From: Hydrolagus colliei
Taxonomy: Eukaryota
Direction of reading: 5' to 3'
Assembly: GCA_035084275.1 (NCBI GenBank)
Contig: CM068756.1
Span: 11,780,001-11,827,089, forward strand
Length of the DNA: 47,089 nucleotides
The notes beneath the pieces are model-generated. The model made no database searches, was not told the origin of the DNA, and worked only from the letters and a program-made list of their open reading frames with translations. The position numbers were made by a program, and so were the translations under genes. Shown one piece after another: positions 888 to 1,322 of this stretch (position 1 is the first letter of the stretch; every line of letters starts with the position of its first letter).

Positions 888-1322
888 ATGATAAGCCTAC
901 CCGACGGGATATGTTCATGGAAGCAAATTATTCAGAATAACTCATGGAAGCAAATTATTCAGATGTTGTACAACTATTTTTGTTCTGGAGACAGAGGAGA
1001 CAGCAAACCGCTTACAACGACTGCTACAGTTAACCAGAATACGGATGCATCCTACAATTCGACCAACATAATGGGTAATAATAACTATATTGTTAACAAC
1101 CCTGTTGTCAACTATAATCGGATTACAAACAATTATTTTGTTAGCAATTTGCCATCGCCCGTAAATGATACTGAAACATGTAATACTTTTGCTCCGTATA
1201 CAATTGTAAACATTCCATCCCTTGCCTATAACTCTGATCTCAGTCGCCAAAGACATCAGCTTGGATCTCTGGATGTCCGTCCCACCTGTAATACGGTGCC
1301 TAACCCGCACCTCACTTCATAA
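888..1322 (+). CDS. Unrecognised small Asn-rich protein, subfamily A (144 aa)
   Basis: ATG in ccaccaagATG context after a ttttatag acceptor (814); putative donor CAG|GCAAGT at 277; AATAAA near 1509; homologous to B and C ORFs (GDRG, QNTDASYN, GNNN, RHQLGS). Confidence 0.65.
   Translation: MISLPDGICSWKQIIQNNSWKQIIQMLYNYFCSGDRGDSKPLTTTATVNQNTDASYNSTNIMGNNNYIVNNPVVNYNRITNNYFVSNLPSPVNDTETCNTFAPYTIVNIPSLAYNSDLSRQRHQLGSLDVRPTCNTVPNPHLTS

Follow-up and report, generated by a model that had tools for sequence, protein, structure and literature searches.

Asn-rich open reading frames with a RHIM-like motif in the chimaera Hydrolagus colliei probably represent an orphan tandem gene family under positive selection

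Introduction

A stretch of 47,089 nucleotides from Hydrolagus colliei (assembly GCA_035084275.1, contig CM068756.1, positions 11,780,001 to 11,827,089 of the forward strand; hereafter the window) holds several short open reading frames (ORFs) whose translations share a motif in an Asn-rich core. An initial annotation had likened this motif to the RHIM, through which RIPK1 and RIPK3 form signalling amyloids, and had proposed that the proteins may be adaptors or decoys of RHIM-type signalling, or else simply prion-like low-complexity proteins. The locus therefore raises the question of whether the motif is a RHIM and, if it is not, what these ORFs encode. Judged from the sequences, we reject the motif as a RHIM; what it marks is a tandem gene family that is under positive selection and has no detectable relatives.

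Results

Motif copies, array and genomic neighbourhood

We found that the motif is present as claimed, with positions 1053..1091 of the forward strand translating to YNSTNIMGNNNYI. The variants quoted for the C, C' and B families likewise stand: YNPTNIMGNGNRI of family C at 3106, followed by NMNMNMNNN, YNPTNIIGNDNYI of family C' at 22735 and 29256 (with an NDNCI form at 16217), and YNMTSINGNNNVN of family B at 8992, 14660, 21178, 27699 and 34237. Its description as one residue shorter than the RHIM and devoid of the core Gln is correct. The window contains ten motif copies, in ORFs of 103-144 codons, which amount to about three independent lineages and not ten, because the copies are paralogues in recent segmental duplications (~5.7 and ~6.5 kb; for example, 15.3 kb at 98.6% identity).

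Upon adding 130 kb of neighbouring DNA to the window, we observe that the array spans ~58 kb, from -23.2 kb to 34.5 kb in window coordinates. It comprises 19 ATG-bearing copies, namely 13 full-length (116-144 aa, the tail of two of them shortened by a 4-nt deletion), two with premature stops, one frameshifted and three with the 5' part only, beside which there are two further 3' fragments. Within the window, on the forward strand, family A is represented by an ORF of 144 aa at 888..1322, whose entire coding sequence lies in one exon as judged from the ORF list and the coding test, by a 3' half fragment at 3620..4026, and by three copies with the 5' part only at 19732..19980 (where homology stops at 19864, ahead of the motif), 26253..26501 and 32783..33031. 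Family B, also on the forward strand, has ORFs of 128 aa at 14525..14911 (predicted GT donor at 13717 and acceptor at 14505), 21043..21429 and 27564..27950, and of 123 aa at 8857..9228, where a late 4-nt deletion cuts the tail short, and at 34102..34473, which is the last copy of the array. The C copy that the initial annotation quoted (2968..3279, forward, 103 aa) carries a premature stop ahead of the second conserved block, together with the NMNMNM microsatellite, and the C' ORFs, each of 116 aa and forward, lie at 16082..16432 (GAS site at 15840, TATA at 15926, weak donor at 15977), 22600..22950 and 29121..29471.

Several repeats accompany these copies. An AATATG microsatellite (3175-3195; L011 about 7750-7790) encodes the variable-length NMNMNM run of family C, which would thus change length in frame by slippage. 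A tandem repeat with a 16-nt unit (AAAAAAGAAAATTACA-like), which varies in copy number, lies 3' of C and C' copies (16577-16640, L011:8070-8290), and a LINE ORF of 844 codons, with endonuclease and reverse transcriptase recognised by inspection, is situated inside the array on the reverse strand (L012:5852-8386).

Next to the array, exons of a transglutaminase outside the family lie on the reverse strand at 38287..46553, identified by Pfam Transglut_C and Transglut_N, matches to TGM2 in the PDB and synteny. On the other side, ~8 kb before the array begins, Pfam places the first coding exon of an FHOD-type formin (Formin_GBD_N; L014:8417-8749, reverse strand), head to head with the array. The ORFs downstream of the transglutaminase, without a Pfam match, we take by name to be TMPPE-like and C6orf89-like, and FHOD1 presumably adjoins SLC9A5 in human. 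TMPPE, TGM10 and SLC9A5 are given as neighbours in shark, coelacanth and lungfish in a supplement table (S7) of PMC11152450; because of this neighbourhood, the transglutaminase is likely TGM10 and the array lies inside an old conserved interval. The RIPK3/TGM1 region was considered as the locus of the array and rejected, the gene order fitting the TGM10-SLC9A5/FHOD1 region.

Reading frames are kept open across the array

The array ORFs are protein-coding with high probability. Of 14 aligned copies, 12 run through 100 codons without a stop, whereas a neutral HKY simulation (tree length 0.88 substitutions/site; 14 of the 16 aligned copies, two near-identical ones being left out) expects 1.1-1.5 of 14, and the probability of at least 12 open copies under this simulation is 0.0003-0.003. 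Stop codons occur in two columns of the coding frame versus 8-18 in the five other frames. Gaps between diverged copies within the ORF measure 9, 27, 6, 21, 24, 3, 6 and 12 nt, the 6 and 12 nt among them being the 6-nt microsatellite, while the gaps in the flanks are mostly non-multiples of 3.

The start ATG is aligned across families A, B and C, and a GT or GC donor is found at a homologous upstream position in A, B, C and C'. Candidate acceptors lie 13-73 nt ahead of the ATG, and a TATA-like box is present only in C and C'. The predicted gene layout is a short non-coding exon 1 followed by a single coding exon. For copy A, the predicted 5' UTR intron occupies 277..814 on the forward strand, with a GCAAGT donor at 277, a candidate AG acceptor at 813-814 and a LINE fragment inside; shorter LINE fragments are held by the predicted introns of both A and B. 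The predicted donors (noted at 277, 2812, 15977 and 18980) are of the GC type in A, C and C' (GCAAGT, GCGAGT, GCGGGT) and GT in B and one upstream copy, so that paralogues differ by a GT/GC switch. We dropped a donor-like site at -25794 as not homologous. In contigs of the public run X1, whose kind is unrecorded, the intron joint was not seen, which counts neither for nor against the layout. Contigs of the same run (14400-16800) carry B-type and C-type variants, including the 4-nt tail deletion.

The family diversifies under positive selection

The array family is diversifying under positive selection. Codon models gave an overall omega of 1.62 (M0), and M2a fitted better than M1a (LRT 18.7, p 9e-5), placing some 43% of sites at omega 3.3, in a class of site tests that gene conversion between paralogues can inflate. 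The M2a signal was kept with F1x4 (p 0.0003) and was missing in four of five control frames, the fifth (p 0.002) being an antisense frame whose third codon position coincides with that of the coding frame. Between two B copies there are 10 non-synonymous and 0 synonymous changes (binomial p 0.08), which amounts to ~2.8% versus 1.0% in their flanks (p 0.017). Pairwise dN/dS between families ranges from 0.7 to 1.7, and a class of strongly purified sites was not resolved (M1a versus omega = 1, p 0.14).

Conserved blocks and predicted structure of the proteins

Upon alignment of the copies, the invariant columns cluster in three conserved blocks, namely a GDRG-PL linker (7/16), block 1 (9/15) and block 2 (8/16), with 0/21 in the middle region. 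The motif YNSTNIMGNNNYI forms part of block 1 (QNxDxSYNxTxIxGN), whose nine invariant columns of 15 compare with 28 of 100 overall. Conservation reaches p 0.005 for block 1 as a fixed 15-column window, 0.066 for its nine core columns and 0.15 as the best window. The expectation that the motif is conserved beyond the rest of the ORF is thus borne out in part, as it belongs to the better conserved blocks but is not uniquely so. Furthermore, a site inside the motif (S/T/P/M, posterior 0.98) is among the most rapidly changing. Block 2, (Y/C)NSxLxxQRHQ(L/V)GSx(D/N), lies at 1227..1274 in copy A on the forward strand.

The N-terminal helix of copy A (residues 1-33; 888..986, forward), predicted from AlphaFold2 and the hydrophobic moment, contains a 27-nt internal duplication. 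AlphaFold2 places helices at residues 9-17 and 20-32 and leaves the remainder below pLDDT 50, with a mean pLDDT of 44. The helix is amphipathic above shuffles in four of six copies, those of B and C (hydrophobic moment, p 0.0015-0.048), and not in the two A copies (0.11-0.15). It carries Cys and 1-4 net positive charges; the B helix is amphipathic at +4, without acidic residues up to GDRG, and the A helices are of low charge with Asp or Glu present. With 2 of 23 columns invariant, the helix is the least conserved region, and the N terminus, being amphipathic and charged, is by inspection unlike a typical signal peptide.

The proteins contain 14-18% Asn, with up to 16 N+Q per 40 residues and a modest N+Q total of 17-23%. 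The fallback reading of the initial annotation, small proteins with an Asn-rich low-complexity core, agrees with these data, as the ORFs are coding, 14-18% Asn and predicted to be disordered. No folded domain was predicted by AlphaFold2, and no Pfam, PDB or MLKL likeness was detected. A complex prediction with four copies of the core scored 0.01, which is not evidence either way.

Likeness to the RHIM

Judged by Pfam PF12721 (cut-off 20 bits), there were no matches in six ORFs and seven motif peptides, in a search whose HMMER filters drop very weak matches, while the RIPK1 RHIM exon of the same animal, the positive control, scored 24.7 bits. The genome-wide Pfam RHIM search returned nine matches among 43 candidates, none on the contig of the array. 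A second RHIM-like match (L025, 18.9 bits) was set aside, being below the cut-off and among repeat-like sequence. The animal's RIPK1 is represented by the RHIM exon, with VQIG as its core, and a following death-domain exon (L024:1489-2008, C2:28.76 Mb), and the only database relative of the RHIM exon is a Callorhinchus milii RIPK1-like protein at 76% identity. RHIMs of RIPK3, TRIF and ZBP1 were not found in the Pfam genome search, a loose look, and are hence outside the RHIM comparisons; a search for RIPK3 with the RIPK1 kinase stretch found only other kinases and missed RIPK1 itself too. The necroptosis effector MLKL is, by its sequence, evidently present in this animal, with an N-terminal domain exon of 137 bits on the same contig, 1.7 Mb from the array (L039:1459-1962, reverse strand; C23:13.53 Mb).

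The core tetrad (V/I)-Q-(V/I/L/C)-G or its fish variants occurs in none of ten array proteins, against VQIG in the animal's RIPK1. PMC12119088 describes RHIM cores as less conserved in fish, with the variants VQFG, LQIG, VQSG, CQIG and TQIG, and there the natural fish and lamprey variants all keep Q and G. The tetrad-equivalent in the array is NI(M/I)G or SING in the first motif and HQ(L/V)G in block 2, so that block 2 has a Q-hydrophobic-G but His where RHIMs have V/I, and B has Asn at the site preceding Gly. According to a deep mutational scan (bioRxiv 10.64898/2026.02.19.706818), Y531, I533, I539 and I541 of RIPK1 are essential for nucleation, and deletion of the core Gln of RIPK3 severely lowers amyloid nucleation. 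The alignment in the initial annotation requires exactly that Gln deletion. Aligned by hand, copy A keeps one of four aliphatic positions ungapped (with either anchor) and two of four with the Gln deleted, against four of four in the animal's RIPK1, and at the equivalents of Y531/I533 the array has D/S or T/A.

We also compared the array proteins with whole-protein shuffles by BLOSUM62 local alignment. Likeness above shuffled controls is seen for A and C' against the mammalian sequences, but not for B or the upstream C copies, nor against chimaera RHIMs (0/10). Against two mammalian 13-mers, picked as queries after the fact, A reached p about 0.003 with both and C' 0.003 and 0.027; not above shuffles were B (0.30, 0.053), C-15k (0.21, 0.58) and C-2.4k (0.41, 0.16). 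In the ten comparisons with the RIPK1 RHIMs of this animal and Callorhinchus, none exceeded the shuffles (p 0.12-0.73), and a profile comparison with Callorhinchus RIPK1 returned a probability of 0.2%. The proposal of a RHIM adaptor or decoy thus fails on Pfam, on the core tetrad, on likeness to the animal's own RHIM and on a partner gene, none of which was found, and we reject the motif as a RHIM from sequence comparison.

Searches for relatives

Within the genome (1.0 Gb, 532 contigs), every match in protein searches with E < 0.4 was on the contig of the array (C23). The motif was not found outside the array: all 13 matches of a degenerate pattern over the genome, and all 16 matches from 17 candidates in a search with a 38-aa peptide, lie in it, although these searches could miss a diverged or intron-split partner.

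Among proteins of similar length only, a search with a single A protein yielded none of six candidates, and one with alignment A2 none of 2495 at E <= 1. A full HMMER profile search at any length gave two matches, each to an unrelated repeat protein and owed to low complexity, and two PDB matches were attributed to chance. Weak Pfam matches to MotCF, LydB and Gypsy were rejected as below their cut-offs. The ESM Atlas held no usable match for B or C, language-model recognition was low (1234 and 1370), and none of 391 pattern matches in viral contigs was confirmed. Overall, no homologue of the array family was found among 1.8 billion cluster representatives. Given the sparse representation of cartilaginous fish and the rapid evolution of the family, this lack of relatives speaks for an unannotated or restricted family and not for its age. 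No account of this gene family was found in the literature searched, from which subscription papers were outside scope.

Upstream sequence elements

A motif scan with background rates predicts a promoter, a short exon 1 and an intron for copy C at 2591..2954 on the forward strand, with GAS-type TTCN3GAA sites at 2591 and 2681, TGACGCAA at 2752, a TATA-like box at 2767, a GC donor at 2812 and an acceptor at 2954. Upstream of C copies we observe a GAS site in its strict form (0.1 per kb in the background) and a C/EBP-ATF-type site (0.08 per kb), and upstream of A and B a kB-like site. The GAS-bearing 23-mer has six exact occurrences in the genome, all in the array. Cytokine-type promoter sites are thus predicted upstream of array copies, in a scan of eight motifs chosen after the fact and over two independent lineages only. 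In copy C the 23-nt element forms an inverted pair at 2578-2703 with one TTCN3GAA per arm, of which a single arm, in degenerate form, is left in the promoters of A and B.

Discussion

The array can be set beside several known systems. Simple epidermal differentiation complex (EDC) genes, such as SPRR, LCE and loricrin, are tandem, with a TATA box, a short non-coding exon, one coding exon and low complexity; the array is alike in its predicted layout, low complexity and lineage restriction, but differs in lying in the TGM10-FHOD interval and not in the S100-flanked EDC, in its Asn-rich composition and amphipathic helix, and in showing no sequence match. With the RHIM of RIPK1, RIPK3, ZBP1 and TRIF it shares a short polar/hydrophobic motif that is set in a disordered region, preceded by YN-x-T and followed by G-x-x-N-hydrophobic, and with ZBP1 the presence of two motif-like blocks per protein; unlike RHIM proteins, it is without the (V/I)Q(V/I/L/C)G core, the aliphatic first strand, or a kinase, death, TIR or Z-alpha domain. 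Drosophila Pirk and Rudra and viral decoys (MCMV vIRA) are presented in PMC4262963 as proteins of small size or modular build that play no catalytic effector role and could block a signalling amyloid. Pirk, Rudra and vIRA can be recognised by a RHIM or RHIM-like motif that fits a partner in the host, and none was found in the array. Fungal and bacterial amyloid signalling motifs (HET-s PFD/HRAM, PP, sigma, BASS, PUASM) are fused to HeLo/HELL/BELL effectors. PMC7889193 and PMC9815663 describe small proteins with a membrane-targeting helical N terminus and an N/G-rich C-terminal segment in such systems, a layout of helical N terminus and Asn-rich C terminus that the array proteins are predicted to share. 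Such motifs are defined, in PMC7889193, by one motif common to sensor and effector, whereas no NLR or other gene in this genome shares the array motif, which is also without a Pfam match; moreover, in contrast to HeLo/HELL/BELL effectors, the array has a single helix and not a helical bundle, and it is unlike the animal's own MLKL N-terminal domain.

We tentatively favour, at a little under even confidence and partly by analogy, an inducible, membrane-attached defence protein with an Asn-rich tail that would act by a non-RHIM mechanism. The amphipathic helix, cationic or Cys-bearing, would hold the protein on the cytosolic face of a membrane, its disordered, Asn-rich tail would bind to itself or to foreign targets that change fast, and expression would be inducible with an immune role, as indirectly suggested by the birth-and-death turnover, the omega above 1 and the array-specific GAS, C/EBP-ATF and kB-like sites on which the defence reading is based. 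Positive selection and tandem turnover are also typical of reproductive and skin/mucus proteins. A competing reading, if a rather unlikely one, is that the proteins are not immune factors but serve structure or recognition in epithelium, egg capsule or reproduction, perhaps as substrates of transglutaminase or as functional amyloid: reproductive proteins often have omega > 1, which counts for it, as do the layout, which is predicted to be like that of simple EDC genes, and the transglutaminase gene adjoining the array. The composition is nevertheless Asn-rich and not Gln/Lys/Pro/Gly-rich, the N terminus is unlike a typical signal peptide by inspection, and the TGM10 neighbourhood is old synteny common to coelacanth, lungfish and shark, with TGM10 being grouped with non-epithelial roles in PMC11152450. 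It is improbable that the helix is a mitochondrial presequence or an antimicrobial/lytic peptide and the Asn-rich part an inert spacer or pro-region, since the conserved blocks sit in the tail (9/15 and 8/16 invariant), the A helices are of low charge with Asp/Glu, and no export signal peptide is apparent by inspection, even though the B helix is cationic (+4) and amphipathic and the helix is least conserved (2/23 invariant), as it likewise is in antimicrobial peptide families.

Marginally less probable again is that the array consists of dispensable or decaying ORFs, formerly coding or hardly constrained sequence that segmental duplication has multiplied, and that the motif merely results from AT-rich, AAT-rich base composition. 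The dN/dS near 1 between families, the six broken copies of 19, the lack of homologues and the low language-model recognition (1234 and 1370) would suit decay, but stops are avoided (P 0.003 or less), indels keep the frame, omega is significantly > 1 in the coding frame, and the ATG and donor position are conserved. We consider it very unlikely that the family consists of RHIM-type adaptors or decoys in degenerate form, comparable with Pirk and viral RHIM proteins, that co-assemble with the amyloids of RIPK1, RIPK3 or TRIF. In its favour are the resemblance of A and C' to mammalian 13-mers above shuffles (p 0.003-0.03), the HQ(L/V)GSx(D/N) of block 2, which in B is spaced as Q-hydrophobic-G-x-x-N, the presence in this animal of MLKL and of a RIPK1 whose RHIM is canonical, the reportedly less conserved fish RHIM cores (PMC12119088), and the positive selection, which would suit a conflict. 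These are weighed against the lack of a Pfam match and of the tetrad, at most two of four aliphatic positions versus four of four in the animal's RIPK1, the unlikeness to the animal's own RHIM (0/10) and to the Callorhinchus RIPK1 profile (0.2%), the Asn before Gly in B and the fast-changing site in the motif, as well as the retention of Q and G in all natural variants listed in PMC12119088. We give the same low probability to a helix-plus-amyloid switch, a new non-RHIM family with a membrane helix and a two-block Asn-rich beta-arch, induced by cytokines and split by an arms race into three subfamilies; if true, cartilaginous fish would have evolved, independently, an effector or decoy of the HET-S-like 'helix plus amyloid' kind.

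In summary, the RHIM lead is mostly closed, but it has brought to light a gene family that lacked annotation, within a vertebrate interval that is conserved otherwise. Families of this kind are often signs of conflict, between host and pathogen or in reproduction, and cartilaginous fish have received little study. Should the tail of these proteins assemble into a functional amyloid, this would be a signalling amyloid of animals with no relation to the RHIM.
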